Positions 19,018 to 31,664 are shown, numbered from the stretch's first letter. The stretch: DNA of 32,000 bases from Methylorubrum extorquens (GCA_900234795.1 LT962688.1:4470001-4502000); one strand, 5' to 3'. Numbers and translations are program-made. Notes: generated by a model from the letters alone, not told the origin.

Positions 19018-19366
19018 ACACCTCCGCTTACGGGAACTTGGTGGCAGGTCCTCCCGAAAGCGTCTGGTGCCTCATGACCAGCGTGTAATGGGTTTGGGCA
19101 GGTCATCGGCCTGTCCATGTTCGCCGACGTGATCTGCCCTGGTGTTCTCGGCAACCGCGGATCGGCTTGAGCTTTGATCAACAAGGGTTACCGACTGGAG
19201 GCTGCCTCGGTCCGACGCCGGATGCGCGCCAGCGGCTTGCCCAGCAATGGCGCACCCACGGCACACCATCGGCGCCGCGTCCGCATCCGCGGGCACATTG
19301 CCGGCGCTTGAGCGGCCCCCCCGCTTCCTGGCGCAACCGACACGATTCGAACGTGTGACCTTTGCC
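18926..19366. repeat. copy B of the ~450-bp duplication, ending in an inverted tRNA-Arg 3' fragment (19329-19366)
   Basis: 19329-19366 (tggcgcaaccgacacgattcgaacgtgtgacctttgcc) is the reverse complement of tRNA positions 19512-19549 with one mismatch. Confidence 0.9.
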
Positions 19367-19472
19367 TGAGGAGGGCCGCGCGGCCATCCCTTTGAGCGAT
19401 CAGGGCATTTCATCACCCCGCACAGCGCCGTTGCGTCCGCCGCCCAGTTGGGCTACTCACGAGCCACGGTCA

Positions 19473-19549
19473 GCACCCGTAGCTCAGCTGGATAGAGCGT
19501 TGCCCTCCGAAGGCAAAGGTCACACGTTCGAATCGTGTCGGGTGCGCCA
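19473..19549 (+). tRNA. tRNA-Arg (anticodon CCG), CCA encoded
   Basis: The 77-nt sequence folds as a cloverleaf. Arms: acceptor gcacccg/cgggtgc, D-arm gctc/gagc, anticodon stem ttgcc/ggcaa with loop ctCCGaa, T-arm acacg/cgtgt with loop ttcgaat, and terminal gcca. Confidence 0.95.
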
Positions 19550-19553
19550 ATCA
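19503..19553. repeat. attL: 51-bp direct repeat (tRNA 3' 47 nt plus 4 nt)
   Basis: ccctccgaaggcaaaggtcacacgttcgaatcgtgtcgggtgcgccaatca is identical to 31614-31664. Confidence 0.95.
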
Positions 19554-19656
19554 TAAGCCATTGTTTTCGCTTATGGTTTTCTGACCCTTCCGAAAGCTCC
19601 ATCTAGCGTTCGTGAACAGCCTGTCACGCTTTGTCACAAGCGACGGGTCACGAATC

Positions 19657-20655
19657 ATGGCGACTATCCGAAAGCGGGGCCGTTCCTGGCAGGTTCAGGT
19701 GCGACACGTCGGCTTTCCCACCCGCTCGAAATCGTTCTCTTCCAAGGCTGCCGCAGTCGCGTGGGCGCAGGCTCGGGAGCGGGATTATGCTCCGACTGAT
19801 GCCCCTACCAACCGGTCCGCTAGCGATAGCTTGACGGTCGGAGAACTGTTGCAGCGGTATCAGACTGAGGTAACTGCGCTCAAACGGGGCTACGCTTCGG
19901 AGAACTGCCGCATCAACAACATGCTTGGGCATCCCGTAGCCACCGTCTCAGTCACGAACATCTCATCGCGGCACTTCGCAGAATATCGGAACAATCGACT
20001 CAAAAAAGTCGGCGCGGATACCGTGAGACGTGAACTGACAATCTTTCGCCACTGCTTCGAGATTGCGAAGAAAGAATGGGAAATATCCTTAATCAAAAAT
20101 CCCCTGCATGACATCCGCTTTCCGAATCCAGGACTTCCACGCGAGGAACGGCTGCCGACGGATGGTGAAAGTAGACTAGAGCTAGAAATTGCAGCACTTC
20201 GCAACAGGCATATCGCTGCTGCCATAAAACTAGCTATAGAAACAGGAATGCGCCGAGGTGAGCTGCTGTCGCTAAAGTGGAAGGATGTCGATCTTGTTCA
20301 AGGAACAGCGCGTATACATGAAACGAAGAACGGAAGACCGAGAACGATTCCACTTACTCCGGCCGCCATCCGGGAACTTGAACGTATCGAAAGGAAAGGT
20401 GAACGTGTAATCCCGGTATCTGCAAATGCAATTCATCTTTGCTGGAACCGCATAAGAACACGAGCAGGACTGGGAGGATTGCGCTTCCATGATCTCCGGC
20501 ACGAAGCGATAAGCCGCTTTTTTGAGTTAGGACTCACGGTTCCAGAGGTTGCATTGATATCAGGGCATCGCTCCCTTTCAATGTTGCACCGATATACGCA
20601 TCTGCGACCAGAGAATGTAGCGCGTAAGTTGAGAGCGATGACATTTTCCACGTGA
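19657..20655 (+). CDS. int: tyrosine-type site-specific integrase
   Basis: MATIRKRGRSWQVQVRH is the N-terminal arm/SAM-like region. The catalytic signature is GMRRGELLSLKW (Arg), HDLRHEAISRF (HxxR) and LSMLHRYTH (His/Tyr). The ATG at 19657 is preferred over the track start at 19612. Confidence 0.92.
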   Translation: MATIRKRGRSWQVQVRHVGFPTRSKSFSSKAAAVAWAQARERDYAPTDAPTNRSASDSLTVGELLQRYQTEVTALKRGYASENCRINNMLGHPVATVSVTNISSRHFAEYRNNRLKKVGADTVRRELTIFRHCFEIAKKEWEISLIKNPLHDIRFPNPGLPREERLPTDGESRLELEIAALRNRHIAAAIKLAIETGMRRGELLSLKWKDVDLVQGTARIHETKNGRPRTIPLTPAAIRELERIERKGERVIPVSANAIHLCWNRIRTRAGLGGLRFHDLRHEAISRFFELGLTVPEVALISGHRSLSMLHRYTHLRPENVARKLRAMTFST

Positions 20656-20923: not shown

Positions 20924-23311
20924 TTGAAAAAGTTTAAGTATTGCCCTGCGCCAACCGGTGCTGGAAAGACGTATGCGATCGAAGGACGACTAGCCGAAAT
21001 CAGCCGGGACAGTGAGGCGGCCATTCTACTTCAACCCTCGAAGAACCTTTGCCACCAAACTGCAAGCAACATGGCTACACGCTTTCCCGGCGTGATGGTG
21101 GAGGTTTTCAATCAGGACGTGTGCGGAACGAAAACCGTAGTCCGTCTTGCCGAACATCTCAGAAATCCACCAGACCGTCCTCACGTAATCATCGCTACGT
21201 GGGCCGCGTTCATGATGCTCCCTCACTTCGATCGCCGTGAACGCTTCCACCTGATCTGTGATGAAATACCCCAAGCATTCGTGCCAAAAAGCATCAAGTT
21301 GCCTGACAATCATCACGCAATCACCGATGCATTGGAAATCAAGGACGTTGGACCGATCTACGGACTTGTCACGGCAGGCGACACAACTGTTATTAGAAGA
21401 ATTGCAGAGAACGTGCGCAACGATGCTTTCAATGATCTACTCAGCCCGCTCGCCAAGCATATTCACGAACAGCGATATCTGACCTATGTTGATCGTAAAT
21501 CCTACAACGGACTTCTGAGCGGAAGCAGAGACGATCGCTCACTGAACACCTATTCGATGCTTACACCTTCCGTATTCGATGGATTCCGATCTGTGACATT
21601 GGTCGGTGCGCGGGCGGAGGAAACCATTTTGTTCAAGTGGTTCACCCTGCAAGGCGTCAAGTTCATCCAGGATGACGCATTGTTGAGCAAGCTTCGATAC
21701 CACGATCATCAGAATGGTCGTCTTATCGAGTTTCATTACGCGTCTGAACGGAATTGGTCGCTGACGGAACAGCACAACGATCCATCACTTAGGTCGAAGT
21801 TTGAAGGCGCCGTTTCACAAATGTTCGCAGGTCAGCAATTCGTATGGCAGGACAACGTGTCGAATGAAGCGATGATGTTCAGAGATAATGGTTTGGCGCA
21901 CAACGTCGGCCATTGTGCACATGGTCTTAATCAGTTTCAGCATATTGATAAGGCTGTGATCTTTTCTTCGAAGAATTTCAGCAAACATGAAGGGGGATTT
22001 CTGAGTAACTTCTGTCAGATCAGCCCAACTGAACAACGTATCGCATTAGCTTATCATAGTGCTTATCAGACCTACAATCGCATCTCTGTGCGTGACCCTA
22101 ACAACAGCTCAAGGAAGATAGTGGTTCTGCCTGATCAGCAGAATGCTGCTTGGCAGCAGGAACGATATCCCGGGTCGATTGTCGTTCCACTCGGGATCGA
22201 TTCAAGACCTGTGGAGCGAACGCGGGCTGACAAGGTTCATCGCAATGACGCCGACCGACAGAAAGCGCACCGGGACAAACTAAAGAACCAACAGAAGGAG
22301 ATTATGAGCAATGTGATTGATGCAGTTGATTCAAAGCAGACATATGTATCAGTCGACGACTGTCACGACTACTCCTTTAATACAGTATCTTGTGTGACAT
22401 CCCTTCAAGGTTCCATTATTGCACATAAGCGGGATAAAGAGTCGACAATGATCGTCGGATCAAAAGACGGTTTTGTTGCGAACATGAAGCAAATGTCAAA
22501 AAATGTGCTTGAGTCAAAGGATCGTAACAGGCTGATCAGCCCGGCATTGTTCATCGATCTGGTAGGGTTTGCTTCACGTAGAGCTAAACTCAATGCGTTC
22601 TGCGGCAGAAATATATACCTCGATATCGAAAATGGGACTTTGACGCATAGACAACTGGCGAACATTTTTCCAAGCATCGAAATGCTGGCCTATAGCTCAT
22701 ATAGTCATACGAAGGAGATGCCCCGATACCGAGTTGTGTTGCTTACTAACACGATCATGTCGCCTGACGTGTATACAGCGATTTATAATATGGTTTGTGA
22801 GAGAATTGAACTGGCAGGATACAAGACCGCTTCCGAGCATGATTTCGATGCCAAAGAAAAGGTTCATGGAATTGATCGTAAGCCATATCTGACAGACTTG
22901 TTTTATCTTCCTTGTATGCCTGCGGATGGTGAAGGCTTCTTCCTGCACTATCACAAGCATCGCAAGCCGCTTGACGTGATAGGTTGGTGCAACAACTCCT
23001 ATCCGACACGGTTCGATGAGGTTGAATCTGTCAGCCTTGAGCATCACCTACCGAAACAAAACATCGACAGAGATCATGCCCAACTCTGCGAAGAAGCCTT
23101 GCAGAGGTTCCGCGATCAGACCGTCAATCAGGGTAAGAGCCATAAAGCCCTGCGGGCATTGAATTTCACTCTGCTCGAAGGTGGTGTCGATGACGTGTCT
23201 CGTGAAGTGACGCTGACTCAGGCAGCATATCTGAGCCGTTCACGGGAAGATCGGCTCAGGGATAAGCAGCATATGATGAGGTTTGGTCTGCGAAACCTGA
23301 GCCATCGATAG
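20924..23311 (+). CDS. SF2 helicase-like P-loop NTPase with a C-terminal DxE/SxH domain (prim-pol-like or nuclease-like)
   Basis: TTG start; 795 aa. Helicase motifs: motif I APTGAGKT (20948-20971), Ia ILLQPSKNLCHQT, II LICDEIPQ (21251-21274), and a motif VI-like YQTYNRISVR. The C-terminal region has IYLDIEN (22616-22633), SSYSH (22694-22708) and RYRVVLL. Confidence 0.75.
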   Translation: MKKFKYCPAPTGAGKTYAIEGRLAEISRDSEAAILLQPSKNLCHQTASNMATRFPGVMVEVFNQDVCGTKTVVRLAEHLRNPPDRPHVIIATWAAFMMLPHFDRRERFHLICDEIPQAFVPKSIKLPDNHHAITDALEIKDVGPIYGLVTAGDTTVIRRIAENVRNDAFNDLLSPLAKHIHEQRYLTYVDRKSYNGLLSGSRDDRSLNTYSMLTPSVFDGFRSVTLVGARAEETILFKWFTLQGVKFIQDDALLSKLRYHDHQNGRLIEFHYASERNWSLTEQHNDPSLRSKFEGAVSQMFAGQQFVWQDNVSNEAMMFRDNGLAHNVGHCAHGLNQFQHIDKAVIFSSKNFSKHEGGFLSNFCQISPTEQRIALAYHSAYQTYNRISVRDPNNSSRKIVVLPDQQNAAWQQERYPGSIVVPLGIDSRPVERTRADKVHRNDADRQKAHRDKLKNQQKEIMSNVIDAVDSKQTYVSVDDCHDYSFNTVSCVTSLQGSIIAHKRDKESTMIVGSKDGFVANMKQMSKNVLESKDRNRLISPALFIDLVGFASRRAKLNAFCGRNIYLDIENGTLTHRQLANIFPSIEMLAYSSYSHTKEMPRYRVVLLTNTIMSPDVYTAIYNMVCERIELAGYKTASEHDFDAKEKVHGIDRKPYLTDLFYLPCMPADGEGFFLHYHKHRKPLDVIGWCNNSYPTRFDEVESVSLEHHLPKQNIDRDHAQLCEEALQRFRDQTVNQGKSHKALRALNFTLLEGGVDDVSREVTLTQAAYLSRSREDRLRDKQHMMRFGLRNLSHR

Positions 23312-23507: not shown

Positions 23508-23888
23508 ATGAACTCATCTGAGCCGCTTATGATCAACCTGGACTGCAATGACCTTGAGTCAGTCAGTAAATATCTTTTTTTGACTAAGTTAGTCAAAAAG
23601 ATTGCTGACGTCTGCCCTGACTCGGACGTCATAGTAAGTCAGGATCCAGAATTTCCGACGCTTCAATATTCTATCGACACTGTTCGGATTATGGCCGAAA
23701 CACTCCCGAACTTTCGAACTGCGAATGATTTTATGAGTTATATCGGAATACTTGAGTTCGCCGAGTGCATGAGGCACGTTGCTGTTGCTGCGGGACGCTA
23801 CGGTATGCATCCAGCAGAAACCTACGTGACGAAAATGATACTGACAGTGGAACAAGTAGTTTTTGGAGACGAGGCCGAAGCTGCGTAG
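23508..23888 (+). CDS. hypothetical protein (126 aa)
   Basis: ATG ORF with island-like low GC and a protein-like sequence. No recognisable domain and only a weak RBS. Confidence 0.5.
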   Translation: MNSSEPLMINLDCNDLESVSKYLFLTKLVKKIADVCPDSDVIVSQDPEFPTLQYSIDTVRIMAETLPNFRTANDFMSYIGILEFAECMRHVAVAAGRYGMHPAETYVTKMILTVEQVVFGDEAEAA

Positions 23889-24100: not shown

Positions 24101-24505
24101 TTATCTGTCTTCTGTGCGAGATTTCTTGCTGTCCGCAAGAATTTCAGCAAGTTTGTCCTGGCAGGATCTATCGAGGTAGTAATTGCCGAAAAACCCATTT
24201 GGAAATGTCGAGTTTCCGCTCGCGCGTGCCTTTGCAATGATTTCACTACGAATGTTCTCAAACTCTTTGGCGTGATCCTGCCACAGGCCTCGGTAACGCT
24301 TACCATCTGCTATTCTATTCGCAACAGAGAGAGCATGTTCTACTTCCTTTTCTATGTCGAGTGACGGTAGGCAAGCTTCACGACGCAGAACATTCCTTGC
24401 GAGGACAATCCTGCGGATCTCGGCTTCGTCAACGGCGCCGTTATCCACATTCCAGCCATGACGTTCGGACGCTTTGTCGCCGGGAGTGGGACGATCGTCG
24501 GTCAT
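24101..24505 (-). CDS. hypothetical protein (134 aa), translationally coupled to the upstream ARH-phosphatase gene
   Basis: Its ATG overlaps the upstream stop codon (ATGA, 24502-24505). No domain recognised. Confidence 0.65.
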   Translation of the reverse strand: MTDDRPTPGDKASERHGWNVDNGAVDEAEIRRIVLARNVLRREACLPSLDIEKEVEHALSVANRIADGKRYRGLWQDHAKEFENIRSEIIAKARASGNSTFPNGFFGNYYLDRSCQDKLAEILADSKKSRTEDR

Positions 24506-26055
24506 CGTAGGCTCTCCGTGAACACACGATCCGCTAAGCCCTCGATTCGATCATTCCAGGCCAAACGCTTCCGCCACCGTTCGGGGATGCCTGACAGACC
24601 GTAGAAGGCACCGGCAAGCTGGCCTGTGATGGCTCCTGTGGTGTCGCTGTCGTCCCCGAGGTTCACCGCCTCAGGGACGGCCTCCGAGAAGCTGCCTGAC
24701 GATCCGACGCACCATAGAGCGGCCTCAAGGGAGTGAAGGACGTAACCTGAGGATCGGATATTGTCCCGGTGTTTCCCCTTCCATGATCCCTGGATGATCG
24801 CCTGCACACCATCAGAGAGAGGATGGCCGAAGGATGCGCTCAGAACGTCCGTGAGCGGCTTTCCTTGGATTGCTGCGGCAAGGATCGCGGAGAAGGCTTC
24901 ACATGCGTCTACGGCCTCTTGAGCGCCATGGGTCGTGTAGCTTTGCCGTCGTGCTGCATCCTTCAAGCGGTCGGGATCGTTCCAGTAGCGAACGGCGACG
25001 GGTGACAGGCGCATCAGGCTCCCGTTGCCAGCGGTCATTCTATCCGTCGGACCCGCATGGATGTCTCCGGTCCGTTCAAAGTGGATCAGAGCCGTGGCTG
25101 TCACGTTGCCGATATCGAAGCAGTGCCCCGTTACGGAGTTCTCGCCGTCCCTGAACCACCGGCAGAATCGTCTCAGGAGGTCGCGTTCATCTAAGCCGTT
25201 ACGCGCGATCAGACTGTCCGCGAGGCACAAGGCCATCGACGTGTCATCCGTCCATTCACCCGGCTTAAGGTTGAAGGGGCCGCCGCCAATCATGTCCGTG
25301 ACGGGATCGAAGCTGCCGCGCTGTTCGAACTCTACGGTCGTTCCGATAGCGTCGCCCACGGCCAAGCCGACCAGTGCACCAAGCGCACGGTCACGGATCG
25401 CATCGAGAGTCGTTGAAGGGAGGCGTTCGGGAACTGCTGATTGACCGTGGACGTGACGTTCCTGCTCGTCTGTCTCGATAGCGCCTGGGCGGGCCTCACG
25501 GACCCTCTGAACGGCATCCTCGGGGGTAGCACCAAGTTCGACCAAGAGGCGTGCCGCGATGGTGCCGGCCCGTCCAAGCCCGCCTTTACAATGAACGACG
25601 ACGTTGAAGCCGTTCCGCAAGCGTGACCGGAGCACTTCACCAACCGTCACCCATGCTGCTTCGAACTCGTCAGTAGGAGCCGAAACATCCGGGATCGGCA
25701 GGTGCAACCACTCTATACCGTGGCGCCGGCATTCAACCTCGAGTCCCCCAACCCGTAGGGCTTCGATCTCGTGACCTTCGATCAGGGTGACGAGCGCGGT
25801 AGCTCCCCAATCGGAGATCGCCGTCATGTCCGTCGCCAGATCGCGGTGCCAAATGCCTGTTGCTGAGTCCGTCTGAACTTTTCCGGGACAGAACGTAACA
25901 CCGATCTCGCCGAAGCCATCACCAGCCGGGAGCGTCGCGATCATGAGGGGATGCGTCAGGCTTGTTCGTTGATTTGGCTGACTGTGACGGCCAAAGACCG
26001 TTCGAAAAGTATGGTAGGTATCCTCTGGCATAGTATGAATGCTCCTGCCATCCAT
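24502..26055 (-). CDS. fusion protein: protein-tyrosine/dual-specificity phosphatase fold (CX5R) plus ADP-ribosylglycohydrolase (ARH/DraG family)
   Basis: The N-terminal half has VVVHCKGGLGRAGT (HCxxGxxR P-loop; Cys codon at 25588-25590). The C-terminal half has GLAVGDAIGTTVEF, EWTDDTSMAL and GDDSDTTGAITGQLAGAFYG, the ARH metal-binding signatures. The likely true start is the ATG at 26031 (MPEDTY), preceded by AGGAG. Confidence 0.85.
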   Translation of the reverse strand: MDGRSIHTMPEDTYHTFRTVFGRHSQPNQRTSLTHPLMIATLPAGDGFGEIGVTFCPGKVQTDSATGIWHRDLATDMTAISDWGATALVTLIEGHEIEALRVGGLEVECRRHGIEWLHLPIPDVSAPTDEFEAAWVTVGEVLRSRLRNGFNVVVHCKGGLGRAGTIAARLLVELGATPEDAVQRVREARPGAIETDEQERHVHGQSAVPERLPSTTLDAIRDRALGALVGLAVGDAIGTTVEFEQRGSFDPVTDMIGGGPFNLKPGEWTDDTSMALCLADSLIARNGLDERDLLRRFCRWFRDGENSVTGHCFDIGNVTATALIHFERTGDIHAGPTDRMTAGNGSLMRLSPVAVRYWNDPDRLKDAARRQSYTTHGAQEAVDACEAFSAILAAAIQGKPLTDVLSASFGHPLSDGVQAIIQGSWKGKHRDNIRSSGYVLHSLEAALWCVGSSGSFSEAVPEAVNLGDDSDTTGAITGQLAGAFYGLSGIPERWRKRLAWNDRIEGLADRVFTESLR

Positions 26056-26364
26056 CTATGCTAGATACGGATATTATTCAATGGCCGTGTTTTTAGAATG
26101 CTGATTGGCGATAGCTTCAATGATGATGAGCGCAAGCTTCCGATTATCCTCAAAGAGGCCGTTCAGTATAAGCTTGATCCGCGACAGCAGCAGCGGCGTC
26201 ATCGGGGTTTACTATGTCGGATACCCGAAGAAGTAGGGCTTGGTAAGCTACGCCGCGACACAGCGAAGCGTTCCAATAGGGCTTACTTTAGCGGAAATTA
26301 GCTAGAGACGGCACGGCCTCGCGGAGACAAGCAATTCGAAGTTACCTGTCTCTGGGGGCAGAGA

Positions 26365-26934
26365 TTACGTCTTGTCCGGTTCACTCACAGGAGCGGCGGT
26401 GGCACCAACTCCGTTGCCGATTTCCACTCCGCTATGAGGTGGTACCCCAGTCGGCAACACAGGGGCGGCGGTAGGCTCTTCCACGGTCTGTTCAAGCCCA
26501 GCTTCCACATCGCGGATCAGGTCCGCAAACTCGTACGGCTTCCTGAGCAGGCGTGTGCCTGGTGGTAGCTCGCGTTGAGGATCAGTTACACCGCCCGAGG
26601 TCACGATGATGCCAACAGCAGGCCAGCGGTGATGAACAAGGTGGGCAAGCGCAACACCATCGCCCTCAATGCTCCGCGCCGTAATCAACAGACGCACGGA
26701 GGTTGAACCTTCGAGCACCGCCACTGCCTCGGTGGCAGTGCGGACTTCTATGGTCTGGAAGCCTGCATCCGCCAGCATGTCGGCCGTGACCATACGGATC
26801 AGTTCGTTACCCTCGGCGATGAGGATGGCGATGGGCCTGCAATTAGCACTCAATGAGCTTGCTCCGATCCGAGACGCACGGTTGTCAGGACGAGGAGCTG
26901 GGAGCACTCCGGCATGGCGATGTTGCCGCGCCAT
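26365..26934 (-). CDS. receiver (REC) domain protein lacking the phospho-acceptor aspartate (pseudo-receiver)
   Basis: It aligns to CheY-like receivers: ILIAEGNE occupies the DD pocket. LLITARSIEGDG replaces the usual LLITDxxMPGxxG, with Ala at 26677-26679 in place of the acceptor Asp. IIVTSG (Thr) and LRKPY (Lys) are retained. The C-terminal tail is Pro/Ala-rich. Confidence 0.7.
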   Translation of the reverse strand: MARQHRHAGVLPAPRPDNRASRIGASSLSANCRPIAILIAEGNELIRMVTADMLADAGFQTIEVRTATEAVAVLEGSTSVRLLITARSIEGDGVALAHLVHHRWPAVGIIVTSGGVTDPQRELPPGTRLLRKPYEFADLIRDVEAGLEQTVEEPTAAPVLPTGVPPHSGVEIGNGVGATAAPVSEPDKT

Positions 26935-27236: not shown

Positions 27237-27800
27237 TCAAATCGCCGACTCCTGAGCTTCTGAACCGATGATCCGATAGACCTGCATCCGAGAGCATCCG
27301 AGAGCCTTGGCGATGGCGGCCGGACCATGCCCATCAGCCTTCATCGCCAGCACCTTCTCCCGATCCAGCCGCCGTGCCCCGCCCTTGTAGACACCCTTCG
27401 CCTTCGCGGCCTGGATGCCTTCCTTCTGACGTTCAAGGATGAAGCGTCGTTCCATCTGCGACACCATCCCAAGGACGGTAAGCACGATCCTCCCGCTTTC
27501 ACCGCGGGTTGAAACGTGCGGATCAAGGACGGTCAGATAGGCGCCGCGCTGATCCAGTTCATGGACGATGTTGAGAACGTCGCGCGTATCACGGCCAAGC
27601 CTATCGGCGCGGACCACGACCAGTTCGTCACCCTCGCGGATGAAGTCGAGGATCGCAGCGAGTTCCGTGCGGCCATCGCGAGAGGCCCCGGACACCTTCT
27701 CTGACCGGATCGGCTGGCATCCTTCGGCCTTGAGCCGTTCTATCTGGATGTCGAGCGACTGATCCTGGGCGCTACATCTTCCATATCCGATCCTCGCCAA
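27237..27800 (-). CDS. serine recombinase (resolvase/invertase family)
   Basis: TTG start; 187 aa. It has IGYGRCSAQDQ (catalytic Ser10), VVVRADRLGRD, and the C-terminal HTH AAIAKALGCSRMQVYRII. Confidence 0.9.
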   Translation of the reverse strand: MARIGYGRCSAQDQSLDIQIERLKAEGCQPIRSEKVSGASRDGRTELAAILDFIREGDELVVVRADRLGRDTRDVLNIVHELDQRGAYLTVLDPHVSTRGESGRIVLTVLGMVSQMERRFILERQKEGIQAAKAKGVYKGGARRLDREKVLAMKADGHGPAAIAKALGCSRMQVYRIIGSEAQESAI

Positions 27801-28186: not shown

Positions 28187-31100
28187 TTGTTGAGCGAAAT
28201 GCTACAATCGGATTTGCTGGACTTCTATGATCGTGATGCTCTTCTGGAACGCCTCACAAATGGAATGGCTACATCAGATCGGCAGGTTGTGTTCGTAGTA
28301 GGATCTGCCTTAACATCTCCGCACGCCCCGGGGCACCGAGGCGTTCCGGGCGTTGACGGAGTAATCGAATTAATAGCATCGGAGTTTAATGAAAGACAGC
28401 GCAGTGAGCTGCTCTCTAAACTCGAAGTAGCTGAAAATAAATATCAGGATGCATTCAAGTTTCTTCTTGGTCGCCGCAGCCCGCAAGCAGCCAACGACAT
28501 AGTCAGGCGTGCCGTCGCCTCCGCAAGACGAGACTCCGTGGCCAGAGGCTCGGGTTATACGTTGAATGGGTCCACGAGCGAAGACGCTTGCCGAGCGTTT
28601 GAGTCAGATATTGCAGGCTGGTTTCTAAATCCAGGCGTAAGTGCTCTTGGCGAACTTATGGCAGGTTATCCAGAACGTTTTGGAAAGATTGTTCTAACCA
28701 CCAATTTCGATCCTCTAATTGGCATATCGATAGCAGCAGCAGGCGGAATATCATTCAGAACATTCTTGCATGGCGATGGAAATCTAGCCCATACTCAAGG
28801 TGATGGTGCGCACATCGTCCATCTACACGGCTACTGGTTTGGCTCCGACACTTTGCATACCGGAAGACAGCTTGGTCAACAACGCCCACAACTACGGTCT
28901 TCGCTAGCACATTTGCTTCGAAATAAGATTGTCGTTATTATGGCCTACGGTGGCTGGGACGACGTATTTACTAAAACACTTGTTGATGTCGTGATTGACG
29001 ACAATGCATATCCCGAAATCATCTGGTGTTTCCGAGACACTTCGCCATCAATGCGGCCAAAGCTTTTCGAGTTACTCAAACCTGGCATCGATCGCGGGCG
29101 CGTGTCATTATACGCCGGCATCGACTGCCACAGCTTTCTACCACAGCTTTACGACTCGTGGCTTTCTATTGAAGGCAAATCCCCTAGACGCCGACAGCCT
29201 CAGTTGTCAGTTGAAGCCTTTGACTCGTCTGTCATAGACCAGCCTGATACTGGGGCCAGTATAGAAGCCGAAAAAAAACATACTTCCAAATTCCTTTGCA
29301 GTTTGGAAGAGGACCGTCCTCCGGTGATTGACTTTCTTGTAGGTCGAGACGCCGATTTGAAGGATTTGGAGGCAAAAAGCTATCGGGTAGCATTTGTGAC
29401 TGGCATTGGCGGTCAAGGTAAATCCGCCCTGGTTTCAAAATTTTTCTCAAGCGATTCGACGATCAGCGATTTCGATCACCGGGTGTGGCTTGATTGTAAG
29501 GAACAAAGCGAGCGATTCGAAGATCATCTCGCTCATTTGATAGAGTCTTTAAATGATGGGCGCGCGATGAGCGCAGAGCTTTCCAAACAGCCAGCAGAAG
29601 ATCTTGCTGATTTGTTTTGTTCGCTTACCGCTGATTTCCGCATACTAATCATTTTTGACAACGTAGACCACTACATCGATCTTGAGCGCCTCGCTCTGAC
29701 CGGCGCGGCCAGACTGTTTGTAGAGAGATTTCTTTCGAAAGAGTCTAAAGCCAAGCTTGTTTTTACGTGCAGACCAGATGTTGATGAAGCTGACTTAAGA
29801 TTTTACATCAAGAAACTGGCCGGCATTGATTTGGTCGCTACGCGACGGTTGTTCGATCTGCGTGGCGCTAAAGCTAGTGACGCTTCTCTAGAGCGTGCGT
29901 TCAATGTGACCGGTGGGCATCCCTTGTGGCTCGACCTTCTTGCAGCTCAGGTCGCTCAGCGGATACCTCCGATTGAATTGGATGAATTGCTCGAAAACAT
30001 ATCGGCCGGCACCGGTGAAATCCCAGATGCGACTCTTAGATCGATTTGGACAAGCTTGAAAGATCGAGAGCAAATAGTCTTGCAAGGTCTTGCAGAAACC
30101 CTTCGACCAACTACAGCCATACAGCTCTCAGATTACCTTAGATCAAGAACCAATTTCAAGCAAATATCGAAGGCACTAAAAACGCTGAGAAGTCTCAATT
30201 TGCTCGTAACGAAGGAACTTGACGAAGGCGAGGGGTTTGAACTTCATCCTGTAATTCGGGCTTTCATAAAGAATACTTTCAAACGATCCGAACGCGTATG
30301 GTATATAGACGCAATTTTGTCTATGTACTCGGCTTTCTTTGGCACGCATCTCAAAGACCTCAAGCATCATCCATCATCGTCGATGGTTCGGCATTGGCTC
30401 GAAGGCGCCGAGCTTTGCATAAACGCGGGACATAATTCACAAGCTCTACTGAGGCTGAGCGAAGTGAAAGGGGTTTTTCACAGCAGCGAGCCTCCGGGTG
30501 AATATATTCGAGTCACGCAGATTTTATTGTCAACACTCCCGGTTTCGGAGTGGCAATCGCACAAACACTTCGATGATGTCTTCAAAGATTATCATCGCTG
30601 CCTTGTCAACATGGGCCGCGTAGAAGAAGCAGTAAGTGCGCTGGAACAATACGAGAAGTCGCTGGCGGGGAAGGATGCCCGCTACATAAATTACTGCGAT
30701 ATGCAGACTTACATGAATTGGATGGCTGGTAATTTCATCCCTGCAATTCGTTGGGGAACCGAAGGTTCAGAGCTCAAAAACACTAGCGGAGTCGACACCC
30801 CTTTCAATGCTGAACATAATTTAGCACTGGCGCGTCGCGACTCGGGTTCCGTTGATGTTGCGCTTCAATATTTTCTCAGAGGGGCCAATGTAGCCGATGT
30901 GCTGGATATCGCTAAAGTTGATGCCGATCGTGGAGGGGCGTTTTACGGGAATATTGGTAGATGCTTCCATATTATGGGTCAAATTGACTCAGCGTTGATA
31001 TGTTACGTTAAGTCGGCCAGCTTGATTGATACTGAATTCAGAGAAAATATAACCGAGAATCAAGGATACATAAGGCAATGGATTGGTGAGTTATTGTTGC

Positions 31101-31294
31101 AAAAAGGGCAAAAGCAAGCTGCATTGCATTTTTATATAGCCGCGCTCGAGAAATGGCGTGTCGTATCACCTCCGAAAGCTGCGCGCCTGGAAAAATCTAT
31201 GCAGGCTGATTGGCCCGATGGGCACCCAAGTATCAATCCTGCTCGCGCTGAGGCAGCTGTAATTAGGTGGGTTAATAGTAAGGGCGGTCAGTGA
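28187..31294 (+). CDS. SIR2-like domain / NB-ARC-type STAND ATPase / TPR-like repeat protein (Avs5-like, NLR-like antiphage architecture)
   Basis: SIR2_2-type motifs: VVFVVGSALT, TTNFDPL (28697-28711), HLHG (28820-28831) and AYGGWDDVF. NTPase motifs: Walker A GIGGQGKS (29402-29425), Walker B ILIIFDNVD (29642-29668) and the NB-ARC GxP motif GGHPLWL (29912-29932). The last ~330 aa are helical-repeat/TPR-like. The track start is TTG at 28187; the ATG at 28199 is an alternative. Confidence 0.88.
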   Translation: MLSEMLQSDLLDFYDRDALLERLTNGMATSDRQVVFVVGSALTSPHAPGHRGVPGVDGVIELIASEFNERQRSELLSKLEVAENKYQDAFKFLLGRRSPQAANDIVRRAVASARRDSVARGSGYTLNGSTSEDACRAFESDIAGWFLNPGVSALGELMAGYPERFGKIVLTTNFDPLIGISIAAAGGISFRTFLHGDGNLAHTQGDGAHIVHLHGYWFGSDTLHTGRQLGQQRPQLRSSLAHLLRNKIVVIMAYGGWDDVFTKTLVDVVIDDNAYPEIIWCFRDTSPSMRPKLFELLKPGIDRGRVSLYAGIDCHSFLPQLYDSWLSIEGKSPRRRQPQLSVEAFDSSVIDQPDTGASIEAEKKHTSKFLCSLEEDRPPVIDFLVGRDADLKDLEAKSYRVAFVTGIGGQGKSALVSKFFSSDSTISDFDHRVWLDCKEQSERFEDHLAHLIESLNDGRAMSAELSKQPAEDLADLFCSLTADFRILIIFDNVDHYIDLERLALTGAARLFVERFLSKESKAKLVFTCRPDVDEADLRFYIKKLAGIDLVATRRLFDLRGAKASDASLERAFNVTGGHPLWLDLLAAQVAQRIPPIELDELLENISAGTGEIPDATLRSIWTSLKDREQIVLQGLAETLRPTTAIQLSDYLRSRTNFKQISKALKTLRSLNLLVTKELDEGEGFELHPVIRAFIKNTFKRSERVWYIDAILSMYSAFFGTHLKDLKHHPSSSMVRHWLEGAELCINAGHNSQALLRLSEVKGVFHSSEPPGEYIRVTQILLSTLPVSEWQSHKHFDDVFKDYHRCLVNMGRVEEAVSALEQYEKSLAGKDARYINYCDMQTYMNWMAGNFIPAIRWGTEGSELKNTSGVDTPFNAEHNLALARRDSGSVDVALQYFLRGANVADVLDIAKVDADRGGAFYGNIGRCFHIMGQIDSALICYVKSASLIDTEFRENITENQGYIRQWIGELLLQKGQKQAALHFYIAALEKWRVVSPPKAARLEKSMQADWPDGHPSINPARAEAAVIRWVNSKGGQ

Positions 31295-31613: not shown

Positions 31614-31664
31614 CCCTCCGAAGGCAAAGGTCACACGTTCGAATCGTGTCGGGTGCGCCAATCA
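31614..31664. repeat. attR: 51-bp direct repeat identical to 19503-19553
   Basis: A base-by-base comparison shows 51/51 identity. The flanking bases differ on both sides. Confidence 0.95.

Follow-up and report, generated by a model that had tools for sequence, protein, structure and literature searches.

A stretch of 32,000 nucleotides of Methylorubrum extorquens DNA (GCA_900234795.1 LT962688.1:4470001-4502000; hereafter the window) carries, on a 12.1-kb element integrated at a tRNA-Arg gene, a gene whose product fuses a cysteine phosphatase domain of the PTP-SAK family to an ADP-ribosylglycohydrolase (ARH) domain. This fusion may well be a bifunctional eraser providing transferase-independent protection against foreign ADP-ribosylation, a reading held with about as much confidence as doubt, and with less confidence in its details. 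Neither predicted active site is disrupted, and both are strongly conserved; the domains stay linked whatever their order, also as two overlapping genes; and the fusion is carried on integrative elements or beside an NrtR-type ADP-ribose sensor. A role in biological conflict, which a preliminary description of this DNA had put forward, is the best reading of the locus. The fusion itself is unsurprising to a specialist and belongs to a known class. What appears to be new is the association of a family of small proteins (family A) with DUF6508 and the PTP-ARH fusion, as well as a coupled slot behind the fusion that is filled by two unrelated small-protein families in one lineage only.

Domain architecture and conservation of the fusion

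The fusion gene lies on the minus strand at 24502..26031. It had been described as an ORF (open reading frame) of 517 aa, and this open frame does exist (24502..26055), but the likely protein is a shorter one of 509 aa that begins at M9. The ATG at 26031 is probably the real start because an AGGAG sequence 10 nt upstream of M9 is kept among relatives, M1 is not kept, and homologs together with the NCBI record SOR31361.1 (M. extorquens) are 508-509 aa long. The motifs originally quoted for this protein, HCKGGLGRAGT (nt 25593-25561), GDAIGTT, WTDDTSMAL and GDDSDTTGAITG, are all present, and both ORFs and the ATGA overlap between them lie where first reported. The fusion is under strong purifying selection, with dN/dS values of 0.12-0.13 against two relatives. 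The fusion is genuine and has two active sites, as proposed at the outset; its Pfam domains, matched far beyond chance, and its catalytic residues bear this out. Across an alignment of 12 diverse homologs, the phosphatase P-loop HCKGGLGRxG, the Asp of the PIxD motif and the ARH motifs GDAxGTTxE, (W)TDDT and GDDxDT are all invariant.

The ARH domain (24577..25380, minus strand) is Tri1/DraG-like and complete, in agreement with the preliminary description. Pfam PF03747 (ADP_ribosyl_GH) matches aa 226-493 along its full length (model positions 1-287 of 287; E 4e-80; 269.9 bits vs a cutoff of 26.2), and D227, T231, T232, E234, T261-T264, D461 and D463, which make up the acidic and threonine metal-binding motifs of ARH enzymes, are invariant in the 12 homologs. 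The best PDB match of this half is Tri1 (6dre; E 8e-76), followed by the Thermus ARH (2cwc; 8e-73), Lmo0067 and then DraG (1e-34). The NCBIfam Tri1 model NF041672 scores 356 bits over model positions 54-359, below its equivalog cutoff of 490, and the fusion reaches 171 bits against the DraG equivalog TIGR02662, for which the cutoff is 337.

The phosphatase domain (25450..25833, minus strand) contains the P-loop in the HCX5R form, with H147, C148 and R154 (509-aa numbering) invariant among the same homologs. D115 of PIxD is likewise invariant and lies 33 residues before C148, a position suggesting that it acts as the general acid. The best Pfam match of this N-terminal half is PF22784 PTP-SAK (51.3 bits, cutoff 27, E 2e-13, aa 75-202), and the same domain matches PF22785 Tc-R-P (48.5 bits, cutoff 27) and PTP-NADK, a phosphatase family fused to NAD kinase. 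These three Pfam names were presumably introduced by Burroughs and Aravind (2023). The closest solved structures are those of the archaeal phosphatases Tk-PTP/ShufPTP (E 2e-17 to 3e-15) and SsoPTP (4e-13), followed by PRL, DUSP23 and KAP.

Distribution, neighbours and domain shuffling

Relatives of the fusion are widespread. A word-indexed search scored 8000 candidates, the best 120 of which all have both domains (56-100% identity), and a scan of one genome per species located full-length fusions in Alphaproteobacteria, Vicinamibacterales and other Acidobacteria, Gemmatimonadota, Trueperaceae, Latescibacterota, Gammaproteobacteria and Rubrobacteraceae. A metagenome scan with the single protein in the main yielded relatives that were distant or had the ARH domain alone, and it did not return the close Methylorubrum clade. 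Within M. extorquens, the fusion is patchy at strain level and always resides inside integrative elements; integrase or serine-recombinase modules are present in most alphaproteobacterial loci.

The two domains have been rearranged and extended repeatedly. A Nudix-PTP-ARH triple fusion of 654 aa with an intact Nudix box is encoded on a contig classed as viral (L094:7305-9269), where it adjoins an MmeI-type restriction-modification enzyme (L094:4216-6963). The order is reversed to ARH-PTP in L067, the domains are split into overlapping ARH and PTP genes on a Roseomonas plasmid, and in L046 and L048 the PTP-ARH protein bears unknown C-terminal extensions of 250-290 aa. DUF6508 is fused C-terminally in L042 (PTP-ARH-DUF6508, 85 bits) and N-terminally in L050 (DUF6508-PTP-ARH, 111 bits). 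From the triple fusion, PTP-ARH-DUF6508, ARH-PTP and the split genes it can be argued that ADP-ribose release, pyrophosphate cleavage and dephosphorylation belong to one pathway.

A search of 2.9 million viral contigs and 50,697 phage records found no full-length fusion. Jumbo phages commonly encode ARH-only relatives (41-58% identity), and three viral contigs have PTP-only ones (about 50% identity). At L128:3632-4270 and L130:7905-8555, on viral or prophage-like contigs, lie genes for stand-alone PTP-SAK proteins that share about 50% identity with the N-terminal half of the fusion; a NIF/HAD-type phosphatase gene lies directly upstream of the one in L130, and a related ORF about 1 kb upstream of the one in L128.

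Neighbouring genes were counted as clusters in 42 non-redundant full-length fusion loci. Serine recombinases occur in 11 of the 42 and DUF2924 in eight, while tyrosine integrases are found in five, as are directly adjacent NrtR-type Nudix + NrtR_WHD regulators (L010, L013, L014, L015 and L026). Four loci each contain a replication-like protein of about 800 aa, a ParB_N-N6_N4 methyltransferase or DUF5681, and three contain an adjacent, divergent AAA_21 ATPase. The last of these, of the AbiEii/ABC type, is encoded 61-148 nt from the fusion in three Vicinamibacterales genomes (L028:6588-7871, L030 and L032), and the pair could represent another two-gene arrangement of the eraser. No ADP-ribosyltransferase (ART), SIR2 or TIR family recurs near the fusion in the 42 loci, and the same is true of SLOG and cyclase families. 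None of the related elements examined carries SIR2 either, so the link to SIR2/TIR genes envisaged earlier did not survive the neighbourhood comparison.

The coupled small ORF and its link to DUF6508

The partner of the fusion is a 134-aa protein of family A encoded directly downstream (24101..24505, minus strand). The TGA stop of the fusion (24504-24502) overlaps the ATG of the partner (24505-24503) as ATGA. Translational coupling, which had been suggested from this overlap, is plausible because a GGAGAG Shine-Dalgarno sequence (24517-24512) sits within the last codons of the fusion. The partner is a real gene, with an 83%-identical copy in another strain (L001; dN/dS 0.34). A word-indexed search of 5.8 billion proteins returned only the partner itself and one 83% copy, and an exhaustive phmmer search of 1.84 billion representatives returned about 10 small relatives at 31-46% identity (E down to 1e-18), which constitute family A. 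An AlphaFold2 model built on the family A alignment predicts, after a disordered 24-aa N-terminal leader, a core at aa 27-132 made of three helices (aa 27-43, 51-95 and 104-132), with pLDDT (predicted local distance difference test) above 90 over most of the core. The partner has no Pfam, NCBIfam, PADLOC or PHROG match. The remote-homology search proposed for it turned up no relative, as Foldseek comparison of the model with PDB and BFVD gave no match better than E of about 1; profiles of family A, the family B introduced below and DUF6508 matched no PDB sequence.

A small ORF coupled stop to start follows the fusion in every locus of the Methylobacterium/Methylorubrum clade that was examined, though its identity varies. 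Family A fills this slot in three loci, all Methylorubrum-type (the window, L001 and L090), and the unrelated family B (119-125 aa; no Pfam, NCBIfam, PADLOC or PHROG match) fills it in at least five (L002, L005/6, L007, L217-219 and L220/221). The fusions of L001, L002 and L090 are 88%, 86% and about 84% identical to that of the window, whereas the partners are 83% identical, unrelated and 45% identical, respectively. Families A and B are alike only in their first residues (M-[ST]-D-D/A...P), a likeness explained by an exchange point 10-20 nt past the start codon. DNA homology to L002 spans the fusion, disappears over the partner and the adjacent orf126, and returns in the replication gene; GC content at third codon positions (GC3) also breaks exactly at the fusion/partner junction (0.65 vs 0.49), the point where homology to L002 ends. 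Where the replication gene has been swapped, the small ORF follows the fusion and not the replication gene. As a fixed companion of family A, orf126 was rejected, since it is missing in L090.

Outside this clade, the 37 full-length fusion loci carry no family A or B gene in about 16 kb of sequence, and no coupled ORF is conserved downstream of the fusion. Family A, for its part, is also found with no ARH in the vicinity. The partner is an exchangeable accessory of one lineage, not an obligate second half. The two-gene unit inferred in the preliminary description thus fails in its strict form, there being no conserved partner (family A in three loci, family B in at least five, neither in 37), but a weaker tie between family A and the ARH system is retained through DUF6508.

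Family A is coupled by an 8-nt overlap to DUF6508 in two independent contexts, as part of a three-gene module comprising a 185-aa ORF, DUF6508 and family A. One context is a set of plasmid-like contigs of about 7 kb (L087-L089) and the other an island of Methylobacterium sp. WL122 (L224:5295-6766). Assembled in circular permutations, the contigs L087-L089 represent a small plasmid-like element of the ParA/resolvase kind. Family A is therefore tied to the ARH system by two routes, namely its slot behind the fusion and its coupling to DUF6508, which is itself fused to PTP-ARH as described above; a DUF6508 gene also follows an ARH gene on an Aeromonas plasmid. The domain link was established with a local hidden Markov model and Pfam, as a word-indexed search with DUF6508 gave only three close relatives. 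An AlphaFold2 model of DUF6508 built from three sequences is unreliable (pLDDT 47), and no paper mentioning DUF6508 was found in the literature. Family A is at the periphery of the ARH enzyme system and is not required by its core.

The small coupled ORFs might, though this is a speculative and rather improbable extension, be the binding half of a split, two-layer orphan immunity of which the ARH fusion is the enzymatic half. A particular foreign ADP-ribosyltransferase or its modified target would then be bound and blocked, or recognized, by family A, by family B or by DUF6508 together with family A, in a manner likened to the two protection modes of Tri1 but spread over two genes. Were this so, an arms race against phage enzymes or polymorphic toxins would lie behind the swapping of cassettes just past the start codon, the faster pace at which the partner evolves and the disorder of its leader, and the network of family A, DUF6508 and PTP-ARH would supply specificity modules for a new class of element-borne anti-ADP-ribosylation immunity.

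The integrated element

A perfect 51-bp direct repeat, present at 19503-19553 at the 3' end of tRNA-Arg and at 31614-31664, bounds the 12.1-kb element, so that the mobile island described from the outset is upheld. The chromosome is high in GC (about 65%) up to the tRNA-Arg. The tRNA-Arg(CCG) gene (19473-19549, recognized by ARAGORN and Rfam) and the left attachment site attL together span 19473..19553 on the plus strand, and attR (31614..31664, plus strand) is the second repeat copy. Rfam and ARAGORN found only this tRNA, and further RNA elements in the island were rejected. The 3' half of tRNA-Arg has an inverted, 91% complementary copy of 53 nt (19329-19381), located 115 nt upstream of the tRNA gene; this copy is not called as a tRNA by ARAGORN or Rfam and may be a relic att site or a tRNA fragment of an earlier integration. 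One public assembly contig containing the 517-aa form of the fusion measures 12,141 bp; it exceeds the att spacing of 12,111 by 30 (k-1, with k=31), which hints at an assembled excised circle.

The left part of the element, on the plus strand, consists of an integration and replication module. The tyrosine integrase (19612..20655; Pfam Phage_integrase, E 2e-26) has homologs that flank the same module in L002, L005 and L007. The next gene (20924..23311) encodes a 795-aa helicase/primase-like protein with a weak DEAD/ResIII match: its N-terminal region contains a DEAD-like P-loop, and its central region matches phage primase and helicase PHROGs. Since a Prim-Pol/D5_N protein takes its position in L218, the 795-aa protein is probably the replication initiator of the element, of a family without a Pfam model. 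Between this gene and the partner, convergent with the latter, lies orf126 (23508..23888, plus strand), which has no Pfam, NCBIfam, PADLOC or PHROG match and belongs to a variable segment; it is kept only in L001 (86%), and unrelated ORFs occur instead in L002 and L090.

What persists upstream of the fusion, at 26077..26187 (minus strand; 62% identity by tblastn to aa 81-117 of the L002 HTH_31 protein), is the final ~37 codons of a gene for an XRE-type helix-turn-helix (HTH) regulator. The XRE-type gene is intact in L002, 43 nt upstream of the fusion, whereas the window, L001, L090 and L218 retain only 3' remnants, longer in L001 and L090 and similarly short in L217 and L218; the regulator seems to have been lost upon exchange of the upstream cargo. 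Next on the minus strand is a gene for a 189-aa receiver-like orphan protein (26365..26934; Response_reg 20.7 bits, below cutoff), variable cargo that is absent from L001, L002, L005, L218 and L220. It is followed by a 187-aa serine recombinase or resolvase (27237..27800, minus strand; Pfam Resolvase, E 5e-35), a backbone gene of the element family that is 91-96% identical in L001, L002, L218 and L220. Homology of the receiver-like protein and the resolvase to genes of the DUF6508 plasmids was considered and rejected, there being no receiver match and only 33% identity between the resolvases.

Near the right end, 2.1 kb from the fusion, is the SIR2 effector gene noted previously, which was recovered as a 1035-aa SIR2-STAND(NB-ARC)-TPR protein (28187..31294, plus strand; Pfam SIR2_2, NB-ARC and TPR; PADLOC matches the SIR2 domain only). 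This protein is an Avs-like candidate for NADase-type defence and is cargo specific to the element copy of the window. In its place related elements have other cargo: CBASS (cyclic oligonucleotide-based antiphage signalling system) in L002, a TonB-dependent receptor in L218 and a Ros/MucR protein in L220. The CBASS-like module of L002 (L002:1070-3660), upstream of the fusion, combines a SMODS/DncV-like cyclase with a Cap15-type effector. The interchange of this module with the SIR2-STAND gene identifies the Methylorubrum elements as carriers of exchangeable defence cargo. The element is compositionally mosaic, with GC3 of 0.49-0.53 in the integrase, the 795-aa gene, orf126 and the partner, 0.60-0.70 in the fusion, receiver-like and resolvase genes, and 0.46 in SIR2-STAND. 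Among related elements, the replication gene is only 27% identical or is swapped for a Prim-Pol/D5 protein; conservation within the family is highest for the fusion and the resolvase, while the integrase/replication module and cargo are swapped. No ART, type VI secretion system (T6SS), DraT or nif gene is present in the 12.1-kb element or the 32-kb window, and a DarT-like gene sought in the element was rejected, none having been found.

Proposed function and alternative explanations

In the favoured reading, the C-terminal di-metal ARH domain would hydrolyse mono-ADP-ribose off macromolecules, most likely off protein arginines, that a foreign transferase (a phage enzyme or an interbacterial toxin) would have modified. 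The N-terminal cysteine phosphatase would take the terminal phosphate off an ADP-ribose-derived product, candidate substrates being ribose-5-phosphate or AMP after Nudix cleavage, or phosphorylated ADP-ribose, and this dephosphorylation would complete disposal or signalling. The eraser would be an orphan protective function on the tRNA-Arg element, beside other defence cargo. Its ancestral operon would have consisted of the XRE-type regulator, the fusion and a small ORF, with the regulator truncated in the window copy. The partner, probably a regulator, adaptor or inhibitor, would have been grafted behind the fusion stop by recombination and would not be needed for the core enzyme function.

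Several points weigh against this proposal. Since free ADP-ribose contains no phosphomonoester, an additional enzyme (Nudix), which the element lacks, would be required for the phosphatase step. The PTP domain is closest by sequence to protein phosphatases (archaeal PTPs, PRL and KAP) and could instead erase protein phosphorylation. The conserved place of the fusion beside backbone genes fits an element-serving function just as well. No PADLOC-DB v2 model matched the fusion or the partner, and no sigma-70 promoter was found upstream of the fusion, a result that is uninformative for an alphaproteobacterium. Furthermore, the literature that could be searched yielded no experimental test, whether biochemical or genetic, of any ARG-phosphatase fusion.

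The main rival explanation, possible but clearly the less probable of the two, is that the fusion serves the element itself as counter-defence. The eraser would remove ADP-ribose placed by host transferases (DarT-like on DNA, CmdT-like on mRNA) on nucleic acids or proteins of the element during transfer or replication, or would destroy ADP-ribose immune signals. This would suit the conservation of the fusion and resolvase amid swapped modules and cargo, and in other alphaproteobacteria the fusion stands beside the ParB_N-N6_N4 methyltransferase, DUF5681, DUF2924 and a large serine recombinase, genes typical of the backbone or establishment functions of elements. The ARH-only and PTP-only relatives in jumbo phages and viral contigs, at about 50% identity, point the same way, and there are precedents in AdfN of T4-like phages and in DarG3, which acts against a DarT homolog. 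Against it, the full-length fusion is missing from the viral contigs and phage records searched, many orthologs are apparently chromosomal and lie beside the NrtR-type regulator, and the ARH half is nearest to arginine-specific protein hydrolases and not to known DNA or RNA erasers.

It is improbable that the fusion is a small-molecule or regulatory enzyme acting on soluble NAD-derived metabolites, such as phosphorylated ADP-ribose, O-acetyl-ADP-ribose, cyclic ADP-ribose isomers or the NARP1 intermediate ADPR-pyrophosphate. Such an enzyme would tune or end immune signalling that relies on NAD, or keep phages from rebuilding NAD+ once SIR2 has acted. A cysteine phosphatase needs a phosphomonoester or terminal phosphate of the kind that phosphorylated ADP-ribose derivatives have, the PTP domain also matches PTP-NADK, some orthologs adjoin the NrtR-type sensor, and a SIR2 effector is encoded 2 kb away in the window copy. 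That SIR2 neighbour is unique to this copy, however, with no TIR, SIR2, SLOG or cyclase gene recurring by orthologs; the nearest characterized relatives, Tri1 and DraG, are protein hydrolases; and ARG domains have been argued to act mainly on macromolecular adducts (PMC9503650).

Less probable still is an obligate two-gene unit, whether a toxin-antidote pair or an immunity/antitoxin module for the SIR2 effector, as contemplated in the preliminary description. The stop-start overlap and internal Shine-Dalgarno sequence in all Methylobacterium-clade loci examined, the small ORF that tracks the fusion past a swapped replication gene, and the independent coupling of family A to DUF6508 speak for such a unit. 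It is largely refuted by distribution: the slot is shared out between two unrelated families, both of which are missing from the 37 other full-length loci; the junction coincides with a break in composition and in homology; family A is also found at loci with no ARH; and SIR2 is not conserved. Fusions that stay 84-88% identical while their partners are 45% or 83% identical or unrelated show no co-evolution, and the pairing of toxin and antidote is contradicted by a partner that is absent from 37 of 42 full-length loci, replaced by an unrelated family in others and decoupled in identity. The fusion usually occurs alone and is therefore not a toxin needing the partner as its antidote. A housekeeping regulator that reverses endogenous ADP-ribosylation and phosphorylation on a host protein in DraG-like fashion, its mobile location incidental, would accord with DraG-family membership, strong purifying selection and broad phyletic spread, but is just as improbable given the strain-level patchiness in M. 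extorquens, always within integrative elements, the missing DraT/nif context, the DraG score of 171 vs 337, and domain shuffling and variable accessories that are typical of conflict systems (PMC9503650).

Bacterial defence against ADP-ribosylation by phages or rivals is poorly understood, and the ARG-phosphatase class is its main computational candidate. As a compact example from a methylotroph amenable to genetics, the locus offers one 509-aa enzyme, whose two active sites can be mutated, on a 12.1-kb element with exact att sites. Natural variants that differ in regulator, small partner and cargo offer an entry point for studying anti-ADP-ribosylation immunity, and from the shuffled relatives DUF6508 and the new small-protein family gain their first functional context. 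If the eraser reading is true, transferase-independent eraser immunity would be established as mobile-element cargo; if it is not, the fusion is an ordinary member of a large annotated family.

Comparison with known systems

The pair was first taken not to be a described system, and this does not hold: the N-terminal domain has a Pfam model, PF22784, and the ARG plus rhodanese-phosphatase class without a transferase has been delineated computationally. In these ARG-centric systems, the ARG domain occurs without a coupled transferase, over 55% have a fused or coupled phosphatase, in most cases a member of the R-P (rhodanese-phosphatase) superfamily, and over 42% have Nudix- or WYL-HTH regulators, with variable chaperone, ARPP and nuclease accessories (Iyer, Burroughs, Anantharaman and Aravind, Viruses 2022; PMC9503650, section 3.8). 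They are predicted to strip ADP-ribose set by viral transferases, with the phosphatase and Nudix enzyme processing the released ADP-ribose, and their phyletic patterns are the basis for arguing that ARG domains act mainly on macromolecular adducts (PMC9503650).

By its sequence, the fusion fits the defining features of this predicted class. It has no coupled transferase or sirtuin (the SIR2-STAND gene 2 kb off is not kept with the fusion in any relative), an R-P cysteine phosphatase is joined to ARG in one polypeptide, and its orthologs adjoin NrtR-type Nudix regulators; the core is conserved, accessories are displaceable, and turnover between close genomes is rapid. It departs from the class in part in features that are optional there. 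A Nudix or WYL regulator is absent from the window copy, whose ancestral regulator was an XRE-type HTH protein, now truncated, and chaperones (vWA, SseB and TY-Chap1-3), ARPP and restriction endonucleases were not detected in the element. The accessories found here, families A and B and DUF6508, are not named in PMC9503650, and the fusion is borne on an integrative element, whereas the published class is presented as a host system.

The nearest characterized ARH proteins differ from the fusion in context. Tri1 (6DRE), the ADP-ribosylarginine hydrolase that gives Serratia proteamaculans immunity to its T6SS effector Tre1, has the same acidic metal motifs and shares the concept of protection by enzymatic reversal. 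An N-terminal extension of Tri1 occludes the toxin Tre1, and Tri1 also protects enzymatically (PMC8120803). That extension is absent from the fusion, in which only Tri1 residues 68-358 align and the PTP domain stands in its stead; the score is below the equivalog cutoff, and no Tre1 or T6SS genes are nearby. DraG, the Arg-ADP-ribose hydrolase of the DraT/DraG switch, has the same fold and catalytic motifs, but TIGR02662 is below its cutoff, the phosphatase is fused and a DraT, nif or PII context is lacking. The phosphatase half resembles the minimal archaeal PTPs (Tk-PTP, 5Z59; SsoPTP, 2I6I), KAP/CDKN3, PRL and DUSP23 in its HCX5R P-loop and upstream Asp (E 2e-17 to 1e-8). Those are stand-alone protein phosphatases, whereas this domain is locked to ARH and, in relatives, also to Nudix and DUF6508, which argues for an ADP-ribose-linked substrate.

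Erasers that act apart from a transferase of their own are known from other settings. Besides the enzymatic mode of Tri1, bacterial PARG acts against RhsP2 without its own transferase (PMC11833690), the NADAR protein AdfN of T4-like phages is an orphan eraser against DarT1 (PMC11825919), and DarG3 of DarHTG is an ARH-fold antitoxin against a DarT homolog. PARG, AdfN and DarG3 have other folds (NADAR, macro) or partners (DarT and a helicase), and none has a fused cysteine phosphatase; what the fusion would share with them is protection by undoing the modification, by an eraser that lacks its own transferase or serves as a type IV antitoxin.

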